DNA of 57,520 nucleotides, counting the filler, from Circinaria calcarea (taxonomy: Eukaryota): the NCBI GenBank assembly GCA_051942165.1. It is 5 parts of 5 records of this genome, joined end to end, with 100 filler letters (N's around TTAATTAATTAA, not from the genome) between each part and the next. Parts side by side here need not be neighbours in the genome. Positions count along the whole stretch, not along the records: positions 46,127 to 57,520 come from JAVECS010000687.1; 4 more parts are not named here. The stretch is one strand, 5' to 3'. The stretch's first letter is position 1, and the number at the start of each line of letters is the position of its first letter. Made by a program: the position numbers and the translations under genes. The notes under the pieces were generated by a model. It did not search any database. It saw only the letters and a list, made by a program, of their open reading frames with translations, and was not told the DNA's origin. This document shows positions 16,901-55,095 of the stretch, in pieces.

Positions 16901-18175
16901 CTTGTGGAGATGATGTTTGCCGGTCGATGTGGACTCCAAATACTACTCGACGATCTCTGTCATAGTACTGATGTACAAGTTATCAATGAGACTTTGTTCA
17001 ATGAAGAGCTGGGAGCAGTATTTCAAGTTCGCAAGCGCGATGAGATCGAATTCCATCGATGCTTCGCCACCTGTGGACCTCCTCACGGAATGATCAGAAA
17101 GATTGGGCGTGTTCCTTCGGCGTCTAAGCAAGACCTGATCATCCATTGCGGTGCCAATGTCGTCTATCAAGCTTCGAGATCATCTCTCCAGCAGCGTTGG
17201 TCTTCCACTTCGTATCAGATGCAGTGCCTTCGGGACAATCCTCATTGCGCTGATATAGAACACAATCTCATCCTTGACTCGTCTAACCCAGGACTCTTCT
17301 ATAATCTCACTTTCAATCCATCAGCCAACATACTTTCGTTAAAAACCAGTCTTACAAGCTCCTTGCCTCTGTCTGCCAAACCTCGCGTCGCGATTCTCCG
17401 CGAGCAAGGCGTGAATGGCCATGCAGAGATGGCCTTCGCATTCATGAGCGCGGGTTTCTCCGCAATAGATGTGCATATGACTGACCTCCTCTCTGGACGC
17501 GTATCACTCTCAACCTTTGTTGGCCTAGCTGCCTGCGGTGGGTTTTCTTATGGAGATGTTCTCGGCGCAGGACAAGGATGGGCGAAATCGGTTCTCCTTC
17601 ATCCTGGCACACGAAAGGAGTTCAAAGATTTCTTTGAGCGCAAGGACACATTTACCCTTGGCGTTTGTAACGGCTGTCAGTTCTTAAGTCGACTAAAGGA
17701 GCTAATACCAGGAGCCCAGAGGTGGCCATCTTTCGAAAGAAACGCTAGTGAGCAATATGAAGCTCGGATATGTATGGTCGAAATCATAGACAACAAATCC
17801 TCTCCATCGGTGTTTTTACATGGAATGTCCGGTTCTACATTCCCGGTTGTGACTGCTCATGGTGAAGGCAGGGCATACTTCGCTGAGCACAGCAACTCCG
17901 CGGACGCCCTTGCAGAGCAGAACATGGTGGCGGTACGATATGTCGACAACTATTTAAACCCGACGGAACAATTCCCAGCAAATCCTAATGGAAGTCCAAA
18001 AGGGATCACAGGCGTTCGAACACCGGATGGAAGGGTATTGGCAATGATGCCACATCCAGAACGAACAATCTTAGCCGGCGTTGGAAGTTGGATACCTGCT
18101 GGAAAAGCTGAAGAGTGGGGCAACGTGGGACCTTGGGCAAGAGTATTTCAGAGCGCAAGGAGATGGGTTGGATAA
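13975..18175 (+). CDS. ADE6: Phosphoribosylformylglycinamidine synthase (FGAM synthase, large PurL)
   Basis: Exon 1 is MASGFLTYPGSSALSEFR..., followed by intron 14196-14325. Motifs FAQVNSEHCRH, KVETHNHPT, GATGSGGEIRDEG, IHDVGAGG, GVCNGCQ and MMPHPER. Confidence 0.97.
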
Positions 18176-18274
18176 TTCCGTGGGAGACGATAGGATAAGG
18201 GGGAAACTTCTTATATAGTAAATATCGGTTCAAATGATGTCCAAGTTAACATCTGTTTACGCTACGTTGCGATA

Positions 18275-18292
18275 TGTGTGTGTGTGTGTGTG
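18275..18292. repeat. (TG)9 microsatellite
   Basis: Read directly from the sequence. Confidence 0.85.
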
Positions 18293-18612
18293 TATGTAGT
18301 ACTTCTAGGAGAGGGAGGTAGAAGGACGTAGGTAGCCGCCAAGTAGGGGTTATTCTAGGATGCAAGCCAGCACACTTAGCTGTATCTCATATGCTAAGTC
18401 ATGAGTAGCTAGAAGTTCATGCACAACTCAGAAACGAGTCATATGTGGTACCGTAAAATTCTTCTGGGGTAACGCTAAGAAGGCAGATGTACAGTCGACA
18501 AGACCTTTGGAGTAAAATCTCGCTTTGGAGGAAGGCGTATCCTATGAATATCATGTACTGTCGCCCTGGGTCGTTGACTATCTTGCCTTTAGCAATTCCG
18601 ATTCAAAACCCC

Positions 18613-19602
18613 TTAGCCCTCCAGTTGATCCAGTAGAGAATCTGGATATCTTTCTCCACTGACTTGAAAGGAGCGTAACACCTTGTCGACCTCCTCGAGT
18701 TCTGAAGAGCTCAAGGAAATTAGCCTTGTATTCTCTTCTACCCTCGCGACCGTAGTGGCTCCCGGAAGAGGAATAATAGTCGGCATGCCCGCTCCTTGTT
18801 GCAATTGCTTGACCCAGCCAAGAGCAAGCTGTGCCGGCGTACAGGCTTTTTTCCTCGCAATGGCTTTGAGACGATCCACGAGTTCAATGTTCTTTGCAAA
18901 GTTTTCCGGGAAGAAACGAGGGTATTGATGTCGAAAATCGCCTTTGGGGATATCTTCGGGTCCTTTGATTTGGCCGGTTAAGAAACCTCGACCCAGAGGC
19001 GAGTACGCAATAATCGGAATACCATGCTCCGCACAGGTGCTTGCCACGCCATTTCTCAAACAGTTGCTTTCCCACAAGGAGAGTTCCACCTCAACCGAAG
19101 CAATGGGGTGGACCTTGACAGCCCTTTGGATCGTTTGCGCATTACACTCACTCAAGCCAATCCCGCCAATCTTACCCTCTTGGACTAGTTTGGCGAGAGC
19201 GGAGATGGTGGTCTCGATCGGTACATTCCTATCGACCCGTGCACACTCGAAGATGTCGATCTTCTTCTTGCCATCAAGAACTCGGACGCAATTCTCCACA
19301 CTGGCACGCACGAAAGCCTCATCACCGTGCGGCTCCAGACCCTCGTCGTTGCCACCTTTGATATTCAGGATGACTTTGTCGGCATCTTGGGGGTACTTGG
19401 TAAAATATCGGTTGAGCAGGTGAAGGGAATTAGATTCTCGAGGACCGTAGAATTCGCCTCCGTTCCAGAGATTTGCACCGCCAGCTAGAGCCGCCTTCAT
19501 TGCAGCAAAGGCTTGTTCATCAGGAGTTTGTGTGGGGCGCCAGGTCATACCCATCAATCCTAAGCCGCATGAGCCTATTTGCCTGCTGAGTTGAGTAGCC
19601 AT
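18613..19602 (-). CDS. Aldo-keto reductase (pyridoxal reductase-like)
   Basis: Single-exon 329-aa ORF. Motifs GLGLMGMTW, NGGEFYG, IDIFECARVD, GKIGGIGLSE, AYSPLGRGFLTG and IPLPGATT. Confidence 0.92.
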   Translation of the reverse strand: MATQLSRQIGSCGLGLMGMTWRPTQTPDEQAFAAMKAALAGGANLWNGGEFYGPRESNSLHLLNRYFTKYPQDADKVILNIKGGNDEGLEPHGDEAFVRASVENCVRVLDGKKKIDIFECARVDRNVPIETTISALAKLVQEGKIGGIGLSECNAQTIQRAVKVHPIASVEVELSLWESNCLRNGVASTCAEHGIPIIAYSPLGRGFLTGQIKGPEDIPKGDFRHQYPRFFPENFAKNIELVDRLKAIARKKACTPAQLALGWVKQLQQGAGMPTIIPLPGATTVARVEENTRLISLSSSELEEVDKVLRSFQVSGERYPDSLLDQLEG

Positions 19603-20656
19603 CTTGGTGCGTTGCTTGATTTTTGATAACTAGGAAAGAGTAATCTTATGGGGTTTGGCTTTTGACGCGAGTGTCATAAGATCTCGAATTCTGATGCGTT
19701 ATCCAACAAAGGTATAGCTATATATTAAGATATGAAATAGCATACGGGAAAAATGTTCTCCATGTTATATGTATACGAGCTAGGACTCTAAAATATTTAC
19801 CAGCCATCACGCTTGTCAATAATATGCAGTACGTTAGAGAAGCCGATGATCGAGATCGAAGAGCAATATGCTCTACTCATCTTACAGAGGAAAGCTGAAA
19901 GGACCGGAGTATTCCAGGTACAAACAATGGCGCGCGCTGGGGTCGCGATTATTGTCTGCGGCTAACGGCTGCACCTAATTCTAGAGGACGCTAGAATAGA
20001 CACGAAATTTTCTCAAAAACGAGCCATTGAATCATTAATTGATAGCAGCCGTATCTCCGAAGTCCTGTCCCAAGGCGTGGGAATATCACATTGGAAATGT
20101 TTGAGCTCTTAACTATCCTTTACCACATATCACTAAGCAATCTTGGCGTGCCATCATTGCCGTCTCCCCAGCTTTCAGAGCGAACAAGAATAGTCTACTC
20201 GGTCAACGGTCCCAAAGCGCATTGTAACCCGGAGTAACTGCAATTAACCATCCAGACTTTGCTTCAACGCCTGGGCGGAAACCGGAGTCCAATATCGGCG
20301 TGGTGCCTCTATACCCTGTACTCTTTTCGGGGGGGAATCGTTCGGCCCTGCCACTAGCATTCTACCATTATACTATCTACCACGACAAGCATCATAAGGA
20401 GCATTCAATATGCCCTAGTTCAGTAGGGGATTTACGTACATCATCCAGCCGTGTGTCCTAGAGACGTCTGTGGGTACAAAGTCTCTCAAATATATGACTT
20501 TCTATATACTAGATAATGTAAGTTATAGGGTATATAATAGATGCTCGATAATAGGTCTTCTCTTTCCTGTCCTTCGTCGTAGGTGATAGAAGTTCTAGCG
20601 ACTTTTTTATCAAATCATTTTATTCCGGCTATCGTGGATCGCTCTTACTTGGAGAC

Positions 20657-22741
20657 ATGTTGTTATTTCGACTTCTAGTACCTGCTCTATTGACTTTGCT
20701 TGCAGCTGAGGGAAGCCATGTTCAAATCTCCCTTAACCTAACATGGGAAGTCGCAGCTCCAGACGGAAACTCTCGAGAGGTGATCCTTACCAACGGCGGG
20801 TTTCCTGGTCCGCAATTGCTCTTTGACGAAGACGATGATGTTGAGGTGCGTTGTCAATGCAGTTAATTTCGGGCTTTACTCACAATAGCCTAGATAGTGG
20901 TTCATAACAACCTGCCCTTCAATACTACTATGCATTGGCACGGCATTGAGTACGGCTTTCCACAAACATTTCCATGAAGTAGAAGCTGATAATCTATCTA
21001 TATAGGCAACATGGCACACCATGGTCCGATGGCGTCCCTGGACTATCGCAGAATTACATTGTGCCGGAGTCTTCATTCACTTACAGCTTCACTGCTAGCC
21101 CGCCAGGCACTTATTGGTATATCAATCTCACTCTCACAAGAACTCTCATAACATATATATATAGGTACCACTCTCATGCGCGGGGATTAATCCAGGATGG
21201 ACAGTATGGTGCAATTTTCATCCGGTTCGTAATTTGCATATTGACTTTATTACAACATACTAGATAGTACTAACCAACAATCCAGGCGTAAACTAGGCAC
21301 ACCGACGCCTTTCAAACTTATAACAAACGATTCGGAAGACCTAAGTAGAATAGATGTTGCGGCAGCTACTCCCAGACTTGTTCTTCTCTCTGATTGGACC
21401 AATTTCAGCTCATCGAGCTACTACGACGCTCAAGTGAAGATAAACCTGGACCTTTTGTACGTAAGCCTCACGAATCTCCATTTTGTAGCTCACGTAATAT
21501 AGTTGCGTGGACAGCGTGCTCTTTAATGGCAAGGGAGCTGTCAACTGCCAATCACAATCTTTCCTGGAAAGCTTGGTTGGGCCTGTCCTTGCATCGTTGC
21601 TCGATGGCTCCAAGGTTACAGACAAGGGGTATGGCTCTCTTTGCCTCTCAAAATGGTCATCAACTTGACGCTGGACAGATGCCTGATGCCCGCTCTTCCA
21701 GATGTCCAAGGTAAATACTGGAACGACGGTGATCTTTCGAAGCTCCCCCCGGGGCTAAATTCCGGGTGCCAGGCCACTCAGGGAAGCATGGAAATCTTTG
21801 AAGTCGACGCCCGCGATGGCTGGGTGAGTCTCAATTTCATTGGGGCCCAGTCACTTGCAGACATAATCGTTTCCTTGGATGGACACTCAATGTGGATCTA
21901 TGAAGTGGATGGATCATATGTCGAGCCGCGTCTCGTCGACACCCTCAGCGTTTACCATGGAGAACGTTACGCGGCAATGATACAATTGAACAAGACCCCT
22001 GGAAATTATACACTCCGGGCGGGAGTCCAGAATCCAGATCAACTTCTATCCGGGTATTCAACCTTCGCGTACAAAGATGGGAGCGATATAGAAGCGGTAC
22101 CTCCTTACCTCGATTACGGTGGCACAAACACAAGTGCAAACGTCCGATCAAGCGACAGGGAAGCATTCATCCCATATCAGGTGGTGCCGCCGTCTCTTTC
22201 GGCGCAGTCGATCCATTTCACCCAGCTCGGCCGACTGGGTGCCGCATGGAAATGGACTCTGAATGGTCACGCCCGTTATACCGTCGACCGCTTTGACACC
22301 GCTCCGCTGCTCTACAATCCCAACTCCCTGGAAGCGCTGGACGAGAATCTCGTCATCAGGACCCTGTACGACAGCTGGGCCGACATCGTCATCCAGACCG
22401 TCTGGGACGACCAGACTCCCACACAGCCGCCGCATCCCATCCACAAGCATTCCAACAAGGCCTACGTCATCGGCCAAGGCACGGGCATCTTCGCATGGGA
22501 ATCGACCGCGGATGCGATCGAGGCCGTGCCGGCATCTTTCAATCTCATCAACCCACCCTACCGCGATACCTTTGTGACTTCGCCCGCCACCGAGGCATGG
22601 ATCGTGATCCGATATCACGTCATCACGCCCGGCGCCTTTCTGCTGCACTGCCACATCGATACCCATCTCGAATCGGGCATGGCCATGGCGTTGCTGGACG
22701 GGGTGGATCAATGGCCCCAGCTTCCTTGGCCGCCTCGCTAG
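20657..22741 (+). CDS. Secreted multicopper oxidase / laccase (AA1; Abr2/yA-like)
   Basis: Signal peptide and several short introns in the 5' half. Copper motifs HWHG (~20932), WYHSH (~21170), HPIHKH and [12 protein letters not shown]. Confidence 0.92.
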
Positions 22742-46026: not shown

Positions 46027-46126
46027 NNNNNNNNNNNNNNNNNNNNNNNNNNNNNNNNNNNNNNNNNNNNTTAATTAATTAANNNNNNNNNNNNNNNNNN
46101 NNNNNNNNNNNNNNNNNNNNNNNNNN
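46027..46126. other. Artificial contig linker
   Basis: N44-TTAATTAATTAA-N44. Confidence 0.98.
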
Positions 46127-46313: not shown

Positions 46314-46547
46314 CTACTTTGGTCGCATGGGAAATAATCTATAGCTCGGCGCTAAAAGCACTAAAATCCTTACTCAGATTATTAAGATTTTCCCGGTATT
46401 TTACTCCCATCTCCTATTCTGATTGGTGCAAATGGCATGCATACGAGATACTAGAAGTAAATAACAAAGCGTTTCCGGAGTTTAACTGAATTAAGTATTG
46501 ATCTACTAGCGCCGAGCTATGAATTATTTCCCATCCGACCATAGTAG
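46314..46547. mobile_element. MITE-like non-autonomous TIR element (TA-flanked, Tc1/mariner-like)
   Basis: 46314-46354 matches the reverse complement of 46507-46547 at 37/41 nt. TA dinucleotides at 46315-16 and 46545-46. The interior is AT-rich and non-coding. Confidence 0.6.
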
Positions 46548-48170: not shown

Positions 48171-50952
48171 TCAATCCTTTCCACCGGTTAAGTCAGGCGT
48201 ATTTCCGGTGTTTTGACTTGTGCTCCCATGAGTGGCAGACGCAGGCCATGACAGAATTCGTGGCTGAACTGGACTGGGCGAGAGTATACTCTCGCTGACA
48301 GAGCTTTGTCGGCTGTGTTGGCTTGAACGTGAGGATCTTATTTCGATAGGAGAAACCGTGAGCTGACCCTCGAGAGTAGCATCTTGTAGTATAGCGGAGC
48401 TCAGAGGTACGCCAGAAGAGGGAAGATATGTAGCTGGCAGCATTTGCGAATCCTCATAAGGAGACCCCGGGTCGGATGGCTCAGGGTTTCCACGGACAGG
48501 CGTTTGCAGGGACAAGCGAGGAAGCGGGATGCTTTTGGTGTCGATACTTATCTTTGTCGAACTATCTTTGGCACGGTTCAAGTCGACTTTCTTTTGCTCA
48601 ACGATTCTATTCAAAGTGTCCCACAGATCAAGAGCAATTATCCTTGTGCTTCTATTGATATCAAGCATTCTCTCGATTAATTCAACCACTTCCTTAAATG
48701 GCTCTGCCACGCCGTGTAAAACTTCGTTCCGTAGATTCTTGATTTGGCGTTCCACAGCGTCACGACGGATTGGCTTGTCATCTTTCTTTATTTGCCAGAA
48801 GGTATCGTCCTTGCCCTCATCAATTTGAGAGTCTGGAAATCGTCTGGCTACCCTTTCGTTTGCGAAGCTCTTCACGGCTTCATCGTCAAATACAGCCCAT
48901 ATCAAAAGCTCAAGGAACACACATCCGAGCGACCAAACATCGTACGGCCGCGACGTCGCCCCTTCCAACTTGGCTTCGGGGGGCTCATATGTTAATGTTC
49001 CATTCGGCGATCGAGTATTGACGCTGCCCGATCTATAATTTTGTATTTTGCCGGAGCCAAAATCGGTCACCCGAAAGGTTCCGTGCTTTGCACCAATATC
49101 CTGAAAGTACAGTATATTTTCGGGCTTGATATCATGATGCCAGCCTGACTTTCGTACCGGATCTGGCGCGACTAGAGTTGAAGATGGGGTTGGGCTTCGC
49201 GTGTCATCAAAGTTGTGAAGATTCCGGAGAGCTTGTGCTAGTCCACGGAGTTGCTCCAGGAACCACAAGAGGCATTCCTTGTTTGTTACATCAAACCTCG
49301 TTTGCTCCATGTATTGGCGAAGATTACACTGAGCACATGGAAACAGCATGTAGTCCTTCTTCTCATGGGTCCAAGACGCAAGATGAGTGACGATATGGTT
49401 GTGCGGGTATTTTTGAAGCTCGTTCAAGACTCTCATTTCCTGTTTGAAGTCTGTGCCATCTCGTACATCCTTGAATTCCTTCAGGGCGAAGACCGAGTCC
49501 CGGTCCTAGAGGATCGTCAGTAATGTTGGGCTAAGTCGAACACTATCATGTGTTACCTGAGAAAGCATGTGATGGTCAGGGTCTATCTTGACACAATACA
49601 CCTTGCTGTATGATCCAGAGCCACAGAAAGCTTCTTCCTTTTCGGGGTTGTCCTTATTAGTCGATTCCGAAGATGAGCGACTTATTTGCCTCTTCCCAGT
49701 TTTATTATCTGTACCACCTTTCATAATTTGCTCCCTTGGTTGGTAATGTATTGGTAATACAACACAGGGGTCAAGGATTTGATGTTCGCCGACCTTGTTG
49801 AACTCCGGCGAAATGAAGCTGCCTTGCCTATCGAGAAGATTTCGGAAATCAATGTCGCAGTCTCCGTGGCAGTGGTCCTGCTCCTCTTTGAGAGGCAGTC
49901 GCTCATCGCTCAAGCCATCATCTAAGAGCTTTTGGAGACATCTCATCTTGAGTTGTACCAGTACACATATTGCAAAGAGTTTTCTGGCCCGTTCATACAC
50001 TTTCCTAATGAATCCTTCCTTCTCATCATGACTGATTCTTAATGAATTATCCTCTTGAATGATCTGACGAATATCATCCATCGAAGTGACTCTCATGAGA
50101 TCGATGCGAGAGATGTAGAACCTGCGGCTCGAAGAACTCAATGAATTTTTCATCAGGCTGTGAATCTCACGACGCTTCGTGAGTGAGAAGGGATCTTTGT
50201 CAAGTCCACGAGTTTGTAGAGTAAAGTACTCCCTGAAAATTTCAAGACGGAGATTTTGGTGACGATAAAATATCCAGTAATCCATCAAAGTATGGCAGAC
50301 ATCCCTCCAATCCTTCTGTGACGTCAGTGTATGAGTATTTTCGAAATCTCCATCGCCGACAATTCTACAGCTGCCATAGCGAAGGTTTAACTCCCTAAAT
50401 TCGAGATACTTGGCGTCGCTATTTTTAATTTGCTGCTCGGCGAGCACCTCTATCCGGTGATAGCTGCTCACATCATTCGATGGGACTGTCCCTGAGACTG
50501 AAGTATGAAGCGCTCTTTCCTTGAAAGTAATGTGTAAGCTGTATGAGATTGTCGGAGGATGGATAAACTCTTCCACAGGTGAGTTGGGACTATTAGATCC
50601 GTCACGAAGTTGACTTTGTAGACCATTCACGTTTGAATTTGCTTCGGCGGTAATGGAGGGCTCATGTGTTGACCCGGACTCAGAAGGAAAAAGTCGAGCT
50701 TTTGATGGGGGAACAGATGCTTCCTGACCGTTGGACTCGAAGACGACAATATTCGGAACCATGTTGCTTGAGTTGTTTATATCACTACTATCTGGAGAGC
50801 GTTGGTGCACCATCTTTTGGGATGGCCGCTCTTGAGTGACCTTTGGTGTAGCTGACGATTCATCAACCGTACTGACCTGCTCTTAAAACAATAACCGTGT
50901 CAGCTCTGAGATTGTGGGCTAGGCTTCAGAGCATACTTCGGTTGGTTTCCAT
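48171..50952 (-). CDS. Ser/Thr protein kinase with a long N-terminal extension; non-RD catalytic loop
   Basis: Probable micro-exon METNR at 50952 (alternative ATG at 50813) and intron 49556-49506. Motifs GSGSYSKV, FALKEF, HHDIKPENIL, TDFG, GTLTYEPPE and YDVWSLGCVFLE. Confidence 0.9.
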
Positions 50953-51627
50953 TGGGCAATATCACGCTGTAATGAACCCGCAAATTATGGATATGTTGTT
51001 AACCAGATGTTTAAAGCTCAAGTGCAAAACATATTTTTATTCGTAAACAGATATACAATGCATGCGCAGTACTCCAGTTCTACGCAGAGAACAATAGGAA
51101 TAGTAGGGACATGGCGAATTTGAAGGGAGGGACCATGTGGGAATAAGGAAGTGACTGATTAGCTGACCATGAGGCTCCAACGTAAGGCAATAATTCGCCT
51201 GACAATGAGCCTCATACAGGGCGGTGCCTTACGCCCGAATGCAGGAGAAACTTAGTGTTATCACGAGGCCTGCAGGACCGTTAATTCCCTTCAGGGTAGC
51301 CAACCATACAAAATTGGAGTAATATAGGAATTTAGCGGTTACAAAAGGTGATTGGCTTTGAGATAAGATGATGAGCGGAGTGATAAGCACCTTTGCCGCG
51401 GGGGCTGTGACCGAAAAACGGTGGGCAGCTGCGGTCGGGCACCGATACAGGATGATTCTTGTCCACCAGACGTCTCACCGGTCCGAATTGGTTCGCCGGA
51501 CAGGGCTCGTCCATGTCTCGGCAAAGGGCGTAGTCGCACTTCAACAGCTTAATTGATTGAATCTCGTCTTGACAAATTTCTGAGAATTGGAATTAAGCGG
51601 ACCTTTTGGCAACCTTCAGGGTTGCAT

Positions 51628-53705
51628 TCACCCAAATTCAGGCATCGGTGATGTAGGCATCTCGATATGTATATCAGGGTGTCGTGATCTAGGTGCTGCA
51701 TGTCCGAATTCTTCTGGCATTTCCAATGGAAGTTCCCGCTGGTTGCGACGAGCCTTGCGTGAACTGTACAATGCTTCCCAAACATATTTTCTCCACCTAC
51801 CCGGGTTAATTTGATGCGCCTGTATCTTGACCCAAAGCCACCAAGAAAACAGTGTGACCGCTGTTAACGGAAGAGATATAGCAGCATACAACCATGCATT
51901 AGCCAATACAACCAATTTTTCTGGTTGTCCGTCTGTCTGCATCTGCTGGCTTACAAACTGTGTGGAGAAAAAATTCTGTCAATGGATATGTCAGTAACAA
52001 CCTGCTCGCTCAACATTGTCATTGATGACTAACAGATACTACCGTCGCAGGCAGGTATATCAACGTAATGATCGTAAGGACCTTGACAGCGGCAGCGTCT
52101 CTCGTGGCTTTCTCCGTAAATCCTCGCGTTGCAATATTCTCTTGCCGTGCTTCCTCTGCAAGTCGCTGAAGAGAGTGGCCAGTTCCGAGGCTCAACAGGT
52201 CGGACAACTTAGGGTGCCCAATCAGTGAATTCTCTAAAGTGAAAGCACAAGGTTTCTTACTAGACTAATGGTTCCTTGAATCTTCATGTGTAGCGCTTCT
52301 ACCTTCTTCTTGCTTAGTTGAGCCTCCTGTTGCTTCTCCCGGAGAGCAATCTGAATCGGGTCAAATTCAGCGGCAGTAGGATTTTCCAAAGGAGTGTCGA
52401 TGTTATGGGAGAATTGATTGTATTTTTCAATCATGACGGCAATTACATCCAAAATTGAGTCCAGCACGACGAGAATATCAATAATCTGGTCTTGGATATC
52501 CTTGAGCTCCTGGCGTTCTTCGTTGTCTAGCGATAGCGGTGGGCCCTTTGCGCTCATGGAAGCCATAAGAACTCGAGCAGACTGTGGGTTGGTAAACTGA
52601 ACTTTCCTTTGTAAGTTTAAGGGCAGCATGCATACTTGTGCTGTAACCTTTTCAGTAAGGTCAACAATACGTGGCCTCCAATTTGCCAAGGCAGTGTCAA
52701 AAATAATGAGGTGGATCTCAAAGGGATTGAGCCCAGCTAGGCTATCAAAAGTCTTGATATACTTCTCGAGACGTGCCTCTGCGCTTCCGGATGCTGCAAT
52801 CAAAACCCAAGTAGAGCACTGCTGATTTACTTCGTATTTGTGATAGACAGCAGTCTGCCGTATAGACCACGGTTTACCTTCTTTCCTATGATTAAGCTCT
52901 ACATACCTCAATGCGTAGGCACATTCTGGACCAGTTAGTTGCGATTCCGCGCGACCTTAGAGTATTAGTGTAGATTTACCGAAGTCGGCACTGGTTAGAT
53001 GTTCACTGTTGCAAGCATTGCCGGCAAGCCATCTGAACCGCATTTGGGGAGGCATGATCTCGTTTTCACTATGTTTCGCTCCAAACAGCAGAACAAACTC
53101 CCTAAAACGGGGAAATATCGAGAATTGAAACATTAGCGTATCAAAAAGCTCCCTTGTTATCTGGAGGCGGGCGTAAGAATGCCGCTGCCGTATAAAACTG
53201 AAAACCCGAGTTACTGACACGGATGGAAAACAATAAGCGAAGGATTGAAACCTACCACATGCGGAACTGGCGTTTGGAACTCTGGATGTGAGCGAGGTCA
53301 GCACTAAGAAGGCGTGCTGCAAGGACATATGCGCCTCACCTCAGCTATTAGCCTCAGCAGTCTCGGATCCCAAATCCTTCGAAACTGTAATCCGGGCGGC
53401 CCCACACATGGCGGTGAATGCGGCGGCGAGTAGCCATTCCGGTCGGCGGCCAGTGTCGACGCTCTGCTGAGAGAAGAACAGATTGATTCCACCTCTGCTC
53501 CCGGGGCCGACCCCCATTGCGCATCGCTTTGGAAACTCACATGTTGCAGATCATCTGATGCTGCTGGCGGCTGAACATGTATTCCGATCAAGAGATTCTC
53601 ACTGTTGACCTCGAATAGCGTGCCCGACTTCTCATCATATAACTGGCTACTGGCCGAACTCGGATCGTAGAACAGCGTTTGCTCAAAGTACATGGAAGTC
53701 TTCAT
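51628..53705 (-). CDS. Fungal CorA-like 2-TM protein (GMN motif replaced by STQ)
   Basis: Multi-exon open frame: FIRQRHSYARLQIT, ECAYALRYVELN..PWSIRQTAVYH, NPFEIHL..ANWR, a coiled coil, DAAAVKVLTIITLIYLPATVVSNFFSTQFV and NAWLYAAISLPLTAVT. Confidence 0.82.
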
Positions 53706-54181
53706 AGCTGAGACATGGGATAGCGCGGGACAGGGGACTGGGGGAATCAGTTCTGGCCGGCACTCTTAAACAATATCCAGAGAGCCCTTGGGCGGCCCGG
53801 ATGCGGAACACTCGTATGCTGTGATTATTCAAGCTTACCTTAGTAGATGAATTCGTTGGGGAAGGTGAGATAATCCCACGCTCCCCATCCACCACAGGCA
53901 GGCCGCCTATCGCCACACCCGCCTTTTAGCCTCGGGTTTCTCTGCATCTCGAATACTCTGCCAGCGTGATCGGCATTCCTTCCCTGGCGCTACCTTGACG
54001 CCGCTAACCGAGAGACAGTGCCCGATTAACATACGAACGATATAGGACCACCACTGCCCTCGCCTCATTCTCGCCTACCCAACCGGAATTTCACCCTCTG
54101 AAAGCGTCATCCTGTCGTGTCCGGCTGTACCAATCCTACTTACCGCCCGCCTTATCCGTGAGTGAGTGCACCTCGATTGGA

Positions 54182-54488
54182 ATGGCGGTGCAGCAGATTA
54201 TTGAGGATCGTTACATTGATCGAGAACGCTTGCGACTTTTCCTCCTCCGGAAGTTTGGCCCGGGCACCTTTTCGGCCGTGGTGGGTAAATTTGTTCCTTC
54301 GTCGTCTTCTTTCACGCACATCGGGCGAGGGTGTAAGCGCTTGATCCTGCTGTTCAGGTTGCAGAGCAGAGGCAATCCCTGGTACGGTATCTGACCGAGT
54401 CCCTCCACTCGGGGACTTTGGCAGGGTTCGGATTAATCCCGCAACGGAAAGCGTGGAAAAGGCAAATTGGCTGGTGACTGTCATCTAA
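54182..54488 (+). CDS. Small hypothetical protein divergent from the CorA-like gene (3' exon unresolved)
   Basis: Exon MAVQQIIEDRYIDRERLRLFLLRKFGPGTFSAV followed by a GTGGGT donor at 54281. Candidate downstream NWLVTV segment at ~54465. Confidence 0.5.
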
Positions 54489-55095
54489 TACCCACCTGAC
54501 CTTTACACGCTGGTGTAATGAAGAAGTGGCCGTTTCTCTTGTCAGGGGCTGTTTTGCATACCGACCCGATACTTTGCTACATTTAGAACAGCCGAGACAA
54601 GACGTTAGGCGCCTCGGGCCCTTCGCATACATAACTAACATACATACCTCTTACCCAGTGGAAACTTAACAGATGGATCATTAACGCTCCCCAAGCCCTG
54701 AGCGAGGTAACCGCCATCTCCTCAGTCTCACTCCTGTGTTATCCTTCGCGTCTCCATTTGGCCTAACGGTCCCACTTAGGCCGACCTCGAGAGCCTCACC
54801 ATCTAAATCACCAAAAGTACCCTCGATCTGACCGCGAAGTCTTACTAGGCAGAGATCGAAAGGGTGGAGATGCCGATGCGGACCCAAGCGATGATGTGAT
54901 GATACTGTTGCTTGGGGCCTTGGGGTGCCTTCAACGTGCGTATGTTTTGGACTTCGTGGGGGATAAGCAAATGTTACAGCCTGAGGGTTAGCAACGGAGA
55001 TCATTGGGCATTCATAGCTTGACTGATTGGTTGAATGCTAATCGGATCCTGAGTACATGGAGTGTTCTATTTTCCTATAAATCTATAGTCCGCGC

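Follow-up and report, generated by a model that had tools for sequence, protein, structure and literature searches.

What brings a protein kinase, a CorA-like membrane protein and a very small divergent gene together in the genome of Circinaria calcarea, and what could the three do side by side? The stretch of DNA analysed here (the window, 57,520 nucleotides from assembly GCA_051942165.1) carries them in a block that the first-pass annotation had placed at 48171..54488 and put forward as a candidate signalling or cell-death module. All three genes proved to be present and intact there, with corrections needed to the models of the kinase, the CorA-like gene and the small gene. Judged by sequence comparison, the locus is one copy of a conserved module of filamentous ascomycetes, with three genes here and four in many relatives, and the three very probably form a functional unit. 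As to what this unit does, we tentatively favour a kinase-gated channel or pore of the CorA type, acting as an effector of the stress or conflict kind.

Results

Conservation of the gene neighbourhood

How far does this neighbourhood reach beyond the window? Our census comprises 56 metagenome loci (545 kb) with CorA-like relatives, taken from metagenome contigs through two peptide patterns of this subfamily (the NPFEIH pattern among them) and falling into 38 groups at a nucleotide identity of at least 90%. The first-pass annotation had proposed testing for a conserved neighbourhood, and the homologues are indeed co-located in most related loci. Twenty groups have 2.4 kb or more of downstream flank; in 16 of them a kinase gene lies 1.4-2.6 kb past the CorA-like match (tblastn, E<=1e-5), in the same orientation in 15 and inverted in one (L045); with L037, where the N-terminal extension of a kinase runs off the contig end, the total becomes 17 of 20. 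Across the remainder of the 56 loci, 545 kb in total, nothing matched a kinase at E<=1e-3. Upstream of the CorA-like gene, a profile of the small gene's first exon detects that exon in 19 of the 23 groups with at least 2.3 kb of flank, and all three genes are found in 14 of the 18 groups having both flanks. The controls were clean: NCR1, the gene next to the module in the window, and the window's intergenic DNA matched none of the 56 loci, and when the flanks from 27 loci were compared all against all, no other gene recurred, just antisense shadows of the three.

Could the genes be neighbours through inherited synteny or shared regulation alone, with no functional coupling? Some synteny is to be expected in the close examples, since Xylographa and the Varicellaria-type lichens are kin of the source fungus. 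However, the linkage persists even where protein identity has dropped to 25-35%, all other neighbours being different, the partner kinase always comes from one subfamily, and in one genome the pair was duplicated as a pair, so that we regard mere co-inheritance as very improbable. The duplication is that of C. calcarea itself, which carries, on a single 11.7-kb contig, a second pair with consecutive locus tags (the kinase Q9187_003751 and the CorA-like Q9187_003752). Its kinase is 50% and its CorA-like protein 57-59% identical to the window counterpart; the kinase and CorA-like genes were duplicated together in the source genome.

The first-pass annotation had also suggested looking for fusions of kinase and CorA-like protein. 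In two fungi both are annotated as a single model, in the same order as in the window, with the CorA-like part followed by the kinase: P0007 of Xylographa bjoerkii (1273 amino acids) and P0127 of Aspergillus fumigatus (985 amino acids, 56 member sequences). These models prove adjacency and orientation; the fusion proteins themselves are not proven. A related trace may be seen in Rutstroemia spp., where two CorA-like proteins (P0117, P0124) bear the source name 'cmgc cdk kinase protein', a label probably derived from merged models of CorA-like gene and kinase.

The module occurs in lichens, in plant pathogens (Botrytis, Lasiodiplodia, Oculimacula) and in A. fumigatus, and the CorA-like family is confined to filamentous ascomycetes among the 120 matches listed. 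As had been supposed, none of the three is a core gene, in that they are not single-copy core orthologues; the CorA-like family has one to few copies per species among the named matches listed, compared with the dozens typical of HET and NLR genes.

Within this common plan the arrangement varies, with one or two paralogous microproteins of ~57-65 amino acids per module. Two paralogous small genes stand in tandem in L009, L012, L029, L032, L036, L039, L041, L043 and L044, about nine more distant groups in which they share the strand of the CorA-like gene and lie ~1-2.7 kb upstream of the CorA-like match; the second type has conserved exons of its own and a basic, Cys-containing C-terminal end. 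The window clade has one small gene only, divergent from the CorA-like gene. Locus L045 (10001-14766) is rearranged: its kinase gene is inverted, and the small gene lies in the space separating kinase and CorA-like gene. In L020-L028 and L031, ten near-identical copies of one lineage, the CorA-like gene directly follows an ABC-2 transporter gene, as in L014 (for example L022, 6528-11913), and neither small gene nor kinase is found within 10 kb, which looks, from the gene order, like loss of the partners at an otherwise syntenic place. In L004, an orphan CorA-like gene has at a distance of 6 kb an open reading frame (ORF) of 1222 amino acids (17269-20934, minus strand) that is nearly all ankyrin repeats; this ORF does not recur in other loci.

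Tight linkage with a shifting layout recalls allorecognition (het) and toxin-antidote loci, the narrow version of what the first-pass annotation had suggested, in which the CorA-like protein would be a membrane toxin and the small protein or kinase its antidote, with incompatible alleles killing after hyphal fusion or in meiosis. Such loci select for tight linkage of interacting partners; and the number of small genes, their divergent or tandem orientation and the inversion in L045 all vary here, the neighbourhood outside the module is not conserved, and between L039 and L045 the kinases are 85% identical compared with just 60% for the CorA-like proteins. Against this, the module is old, with orthologues across four classes, whereas meiotic drivers and het alleles tend to be of recent origin or strongly polymorphic, and the ten metagenome copies of the L020-28/31 lineage are nearly identical. 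We thus consider such a locus improbable.

The CorA-like protein

The CorA-like gene runs on the minus strand from 53705 to 51628, and its seven exons encode 580 amino acids that align end to end with the Varicellaria rhodocarpa orthologue P0003 (54.5% over 580 residues). The six introns, of 53-58 nt, are of the GT..AG kind with CTRAC-type branch sites. Exon 1 (53340..53705, 122 codons) encodes conserved N-terminal helices and a disordered loop, and exon 2 is a micro-exon of 26 nt (53256..53281) whose inclusion gives a continuous alignment to P0003. Exon 3 (52980..53197) is followed by exon 4 (52636..52925), which contributes the conserved beta-sheet core with its PWSIRQT and NPFEIH motifs, and by exon 5 (52261..52581) with the long helices of the cytoplasmic domain. 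The end of the stalk helix and most of the first transmembrane (TM) helix, TM1 (YLPAT), come from exon 6 (52034..52207), and exon 7 (51628..51975, stop included) encodes the NFFSTQF motif at the end of TM1, the external loop, TM2 and the C-terminal tail. The public model of this gene, Q9187_003855 (371 amino acids), is mis-spliced: it is without the 26-nt exon and the next two, and ends in the last intron, with TM2 lost. In the public model of the paralogue, Q9187_003752 (466 amino acids), the middle of the protein is likewise missing.

Does the protein have a CorA fold, as the first-pass annotation had suggested? The AlphaFold2 (AF2) model of P0003, built with 54 relatives (predicted local distance difference test, pLDDT, 77.4; predicted template-modelling score, pTM, 0.68), finds its best PDB matches in Thermotoga CorA, with a Foldseek E of 7e-11, probability 1.0 over ~400 aligned columns, and a target-normalised template-modelling score (TM-score) of 0.55-0.59. 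In the model, an alpha/beta domain in the cytoplasm is connected through a long stalk helix to two TM helices at the C-terminus, a single helix (373-470) covering stalk and TM1; the pLDDT is 83-96 at residues 1-50 and below 60 at about 55-100. By analogy with CorA, the protein is presumably a pentamer.

At the level of sequence the kinship is faint. The Pfam family CorA (PF01544) matches P0003 weakly in the TM region (E 8e-4, 19.3 bits, with a cutoff of 27) and is not matched by any single window exon; some more distant relatives carry a precomputed match. PF26616, the 'CorA-like transporter domain-containing protein' of the sources, has precomputed matches on P0003, P0004, P0006 and P0008, and our local Pfam scan returned no PF26616 row for the CorA-like proteins. 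The window protein very likely belongs to PF26616, since it aligns over its full length with P0003, itself so tagged. A search of the CorA-like profile against the sequences of solved structures gave only flagellin coiled-coil noise (E>=0.03), and none of the PADLOC models matches P0003 or P0008.

The Gly-Met-Asn (GMN) motif is essential for Mg2+ selection in CorA, Alr1 and Mrs2. Its loss had been noted for the window protein, and this holds for the family: the window reads NFFSTQ at the end of TM1, and GMN occurs nowhere in any of the 54 aligned relatives. At the equivalent position stands S-T-(Q/S/E) within a conserved YLPxTxVxNFFST, with ST in 52 of the 54.

Does this speak for a channel of another kind that nonetheless serves ordinary physiology, a transporter or sensor of a cation other than Mg2+, tuned by the kinase and the microprotein in the service of homeostasis or stress adaptation and with no role in death or conflict? 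The replacement motif shows the degree of conservation expected of a selectivity filter, purifying selection is seen across Lecanoromycetes, Dothideomycetes, Leotiomycetes and Eurotiomycetes, the copy number is low among the matches listed, and the neighbourhood is one of housekeeping genes. Moreover, the Endocarpon pusillum genome paper treats 10 'CorA' genes, an expanded family, as Mg2+ transporters that supply the alga (PMC3897900). Since the GMN-less family has two E. pusillum proteins among its relatives, that interpretation may need revisiting. Set against a physiological pair are the absence of GMN from all 54 relatives, a tight clustering of three genes, which is unusual where fungal housekeeping transport is concerned, lineages that have lost the partners and kept the CorA-like gene (L020-28), and a family not seen outside filamentous ascomycetes among the matches listed. 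On balance we hold such a pair to be possible but unlikely.

The kinase

The kinase gene, on the minus strand, has two exons encoding 863 amino acids and is identical to the public C. calcarea protein Q9187_003854 (P0009). Exon 1 (49557..50813, 419 codons) is stop-free, 100% identical to P0009, and encodes the N-terminal region, a helical extension preceding the kinase domain and the Gly-rich loop. Removal of a GT..AG intron of 51 nt (49506..49556) yields exactly P0009. Exon 2 (48171..49505, 444 codons and the stop) contributes the remaining kinase domain and a Ser/Pro-rich tail to that spliced product; it matches the Pfam family Pkinase (PF00069) with E 5e-20 and contains the Lys of VAIK, the Glu of alphaC, an HHD catalytic loop, DFG and a TYEPPE motif.

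The kinase had been described as intact and non-RD, and both points stand. Lys, alphaC Glu, catalytic Asp and DFG are all there, so that the enzyme looks catalytically competent from its residues, and it is non-RD because it has HHD in the place where RD kinases have HRD. Non-RD kinases are common among the kinases of innate immunity and generally need no phosphorylation of the activation loop, a generalisation by which the window kinase would not need it either. Its counterparts are non-RD as well. In the 17 locus rows with a readable catalytic loop, HHD occurs in 5, HGD in 12 and HRD in none, and DFG is found in all 17; the TYEPPE motif is kept, HHD recurs in P0007 and P0010-13, and P0127 has HGD. 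By these motifs the neighbour kinases are all members of one non-RD (HHD/HGD) subfamily with intact catalytic residues.

Comparison with databases adds little. The kinase gave generic kinase-domain matches in PDB (PDK1, CDK4, Aurora) and in PADLOC and NCBIfam (mad6, MkoA, PD-T4-6), all of them uninformative. Its N-terminal region (the first ~400 residues) matches no Pfam family at E<=0.01, gave no usable match in a search of the protein atlas, and is detectable solely in the closest loci (L001, L002, L009 and L013/14).

The small protein

Is the tiny divergent gene real? It is, as a plus-strand gene of three exons encoding 57 amino acids. Exon 1 (54182-54280, 33 codons) has an invariant RY and encodes a helix ending in F; it is followed by intron 1 (54281..54658; GTGGGT..CAG, with a CTAAC branch site), which measures 378 nt in the window, compared with roughly 60-100 nt in relatives. 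The 16 codons of exon 2 (54659-54706) encode an NRWII-AP-ALS motif that is kept in L002, L009, L013/14, L043 and others and in the spliced database protein P0133, and exon 3 (54780-54806, 8 codons and the stop) supplies an acidic end of the ELD type, such a short last exon being conserved across loci, as is the three-exon structure as a whole. With P0133, also of 57 amino acids, the window product shares 39 of 57 residues without a gap and with the same exon joins.

Searched against 1.84 billion proteins, a 33-position profile of exon 1 retrieves 209 cluster representatives (E<=1e-3). Correctly spliced members of 56-66 amino acids come from Lindgomyces, Lepidopterella, Bisporella, Melanomma, Oidiodendron, Coniothyrium and Lasiodiplodia, and the database entries from these genera are all labelled hypothetical or uncharacterised. 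The hallmarks of the family are three exons, a phase-0 intron after ~33 codons and invariant R-Y, F, P and L positions, into which the window product fits; on this evidence it is a member of an Ascomycota microprotein family without a name. The protein has no match among Pfam, NCBIfam or PADLOC families. A weak Pfam match of one family member to Secretin_N (E 0.027) was treated as chance, and the protein atlas places the small protein with Ascomycota clusters without a name (score 0.75-0.81), a lead only.

What might such a protein be? AF2 predicts for the family a beta-alpha-beta-beta-alpha arrangement (pLDDT 81.7), for which the best Foldseek E is 0.3; in VIA-align a designed protein gives the best Z (5.4), ahead of secretin N-domains and of ACT-like and ferredoxin-like folds, all tied at Z 4-5. 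This is a common small alpha/beta arrangement with no specific relative, and hence we draw no functional conclusion from the fold. It does bear on the idea of a peptide-product cluster, in which the small gene would encode the precursor of a modified or exported peptide, with the kinase as modifying enzyme and the CorA-like protein as exporter. While a small ORF adjoining the genes of an enzyme and a membrane protein would suit such a cluster, the product is predicted to be a compact folded domain and is conserved over its full length, the aligned members have no signal peptide-like start, repeats or dibasic processing sites, and we know of no CorA-fold protein that acts as an exporter. We therefore give this idea hardly any weight.

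A physical link between kinase and microprotein is possibly hinted at by P0273, a single ORF of 231 amino acids on a metagenome contig of 1592 bases, in which a kinase C-lobe of the subfamily (E 3e-4 with the A. fumigatus kinase) precedes a small-protein domain, the two joined by a Ser/Ala-rich linker of ~90 residues. This may be a natural fusion of kinase and microprotein, a single weak hint in the sequence data. We also considered a second microprotein fused to the kinase N-terminus in the window clade and rejected it, as the small-protein profile finds nothing in kinases or CorA-like proteins. A complex prediction for P0003 residues 1-420 with P0133, two proteins from different organisms and with alignments unused, scored 0.06, compared with a mark of 0.34, a value that speaks neither for nor against a complex.

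Layout and surroundings of the locus

The genes lie close together. The CorA-like and kinase genes are separated by an intergenic spacer of 814 bp on the minus strand (50814..51627), reaching from the CorA-like stop to the kinase ATG; the earlier figure of ~680 bp was too low. With a stop codon and this spacer between them, the two are separate genes in the window. The head-to-head gap had been put at ~480 bp, close to the 476 bp that we measure between the CorA-like ATG and that of the small gene; this divergent intergenic region (53706..54181, assigned to neither strand) is presumed, from its position, to be a bidirectional promoter. An upstream ORF of 4 codons (53702-53716, minus strand), whose TGA overlaps the CorA-like ATG, could be an element of translational control or a product of chance. 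Eight of the nine introns in the three genes measure 51-73 nt, the ninth being the 378-nt intron 1 of the small gene. The block does not end at 54488, for the small gene runs to 54806, ~320 bp further.

On the side of the small gene, the flanking gene is NCR1, as the first-pass annotation had stated: it has Sterol-sensing, Patched and NPC1_MLD domain matches, lies on the strand opposite to the small gene and ends 433 bp past it. The flank of 'repeat/MITE DNA' on the other side was borne out only in part. It contains one element resembling a miniature inverted-repeat transposable element (MITE), at 46314-46547, with 41-nt inverted arms that are 90% complementary and 152 nt apart, and, 190 bp before this element, an N gap (46027-46126; two runs of N around the TTAATTAATTAA linker) that we read as a scaffold gap. 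When 20 large ORFs of the window were scanned with Pfam, 11 had matches, none of them outside the usual metabolic and housekeeping families: glyoxal oxidase, FGAM synthase, aldo-keto reductase, multicopper oxidase, ATG43, LTV1, PfkB kinase, P450 and NCR1.

Discussion

What can be discerned from these genes about the role of the module? We tentatively propose that the substrate of the kinase is the microprotein, the cytoplasmic portion of the CorA-like protein, or both, and that phosphorylation would switch a channel between closed and conducting states. The CorA-fold protein would form this channel or pore as an oligomer with its Mg2+ filter replaced, the microprotein would belong to it as a regulatory subunit in fixed stoichiometry, or else be a substrate or adaptor of the kinase, and what results would be a controlled flux of ions or a permeabilisation of the membrane, as distinct from ordinary Mg2+ uptake. 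The loss of GMN, the tight clustering, the variable architecture, the occasional loss of partners and, among the matches listed, the restriction to filamentous ascomycetes lead us to lean towards an effector of stress or conflict. A role of this type, with a membrane effector encoded beside the enzyme that activates it, as in the gasdermin-protease clusters of fungi or the CRISPR-associated CorA of bacteria, appears somewhat more likely than housekeeping transport, and a role in cell death or defence is plausible.

Several points weigh against this interpretation. The deep conservation, the conserved replacement motif, the low copy number and the housekeeping neighbourhood make one lean the other way, towards a physiological channel, and the conserved NFFST and low copy number fit ordinary selected transport as well as they fit a death effector. 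The genes around the module in the window are housekeeping genes, and NLR, HET or transposon genes were not seen in the Pfam scan of the 20 large ORFs. Pfam detects no four-helix bundle of the HeLo/HELL type in the 419-residue N-terminal region of the kinase; full-length P0007 and P0127 have no Pfam family beyond the kinase domain, and hence no HeLo/HELL domain by Pfam, and HeLo, HET, NLR and gasdermin domains were likewise not found by Pfam in the module or the large window ORFs. P0007 and P0127 are probably merged annotation artefacts, since the junction in P0007 deletes the end of TM2 and the window has a stop and 814 bp between the two genes.

The linkage itself has its limits. Our census gauges it inside this CorA-like subfamily and not for all fungal CorA-like proteins. 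Three of the 20 groups have no nearby kinase (L003/4, L006 and the ten near-identical L020-28/31), and the small gene was not detected in L001, nor in L003/4 and L020-28; CorA-like genes without a kinase, and L001 without the small gene, thus tell us that the linkage is not obligatory. CorA-like proteins and their neighbour kinases do diverge together (r 0.63 between their identities over 17 loci and 136 pairs, a value reached in 0 of 2000 permutations), which is equally expected of two vertically inherited neighbours.

If the module is indeed a kinase-gated channel of the stress or conflict type, a more specific and rather unlikely version would make it, by analogy, the fungal counterpart of the CorA-type effectors of prokaryotic abortive defence. 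A pentameric, GMN-less pore would be kept shut by, or together with, one or more microprotein subunits; the non-RD kinase would open the pore on sensing danger, for instance from viruses, bacteria, non-self cytoplasm or a damaged membrane; and the ensuing ion collapse would result in regulated cell death. Were this true, the module would represent a third class of fungal executioner beside the HeLo/MLKL-like proteins and the gasdermins, and the first to be triggered by phosphorylation.

Clusters of fungal genes that do not serve metabolite production are rare, and it was the few that are understood, NLR-HeLo and gasdermin-protease, from which research into fungal immunity and cell death took its start. 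In the literature searched, we found no description of a cluster of kinase, CorA-like protein and microprotein; CorA goes unmentioned in a 2025 review of cell death in fungi, and our search returned nothing on PF26616 or on CorA-like proteins in Pezizomycotina, and just plant and animal papers on non-RD kinases and fungi among the matches listed. The module described here joins the fold of an Mg2+-uptake channel, minus its Mg2+ motif, to a dedicated kinase subfamily and a nameless family of microproteins. It thereby offers a testable hypothesis for what many ascomycete annotations of a 'CorA-like Mg2+ transporter' really denote, and gives an orphan kinase subfamily a partner and a possible substrate.

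Comparison with known systems

How does the module compare with what is known? With the CorA/Mrs2/Alr1 proteins of the MIT superfamily (T. maritima CorA; 8tmc, 2iub, 4i0u) the CorA-like protein shares its fold in the predicted model, including the short outer loop. It differs from them in having NFFST for GMN, no match to solved CorA at the sequence level, an additional conserved N-terminal segment and disordered loop, and a gene linked to those of a kinase and a microprotein. A cation channel functionally and physically joined to a kinase is found in the animal proteins TRPM6 and TRPM7, which combine a TRP channel fold with an alpha-kinase fold. The pairing of channel and kinase is loosely similar, but both folds differ from the fungal ones, and the fungal fusions are probably merged models.

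The logic of a kinase upstream of a membrane-active executioner is shared with RIPK3-MLKL and with fungal HeLo/HELL-kinase proteins (PMC12881547). Unlike MLKL, a soluble protein that inserts on activation, the CorA-like protein would be an integral protein with two TM helices and a CorA fold. A precedent for the gene arrangement comes from the fungal gasdermins, ~80% of which are encoded beside proteases; these gasdermin-protease clusters of two or three genes (HET-Q1/HET-Q2 of Podospora) are widespread in filamentous ascomycetes and variably present (PMC8851545). In both cases the gene of a protein that targets the membrane, or is proposed to, adjoins that of the presumed activating enzyme. 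However, neither the module nor its recurring flank genes have a domain of a gasdermin-like pore former or of an S8 or CHAT protease, and activation would proceed through phosphorylation, not through cleavage.

The nearest parallel to a CorA-family protein turned effector lies in the type III CRISPR system of Bacteroides fragilis, in which a CorA-family membrane effector is activated by S-adenosylmethionine-AMP (SAM-AMP) and resembles the CorA Mg2+ transporters only in its C-terminal TM part (PMC10600005). That system is prokaryotic and works through a nucleotide second messenger made by Cas10, with NrN or a SAM-AMP lyase as partner (PMC10600005), whereas the fungal partners are a eukaryotic-type kinase and a microprotein, at a eukaryotic locus without cas genes. 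The relation between the two is one of analogy, and not of shown homology of systems. What they would have in common is the use of a CorA-family protein as a membrane output device under the control of a neighbouring enzyme, rather than for the transport of a nutrient.

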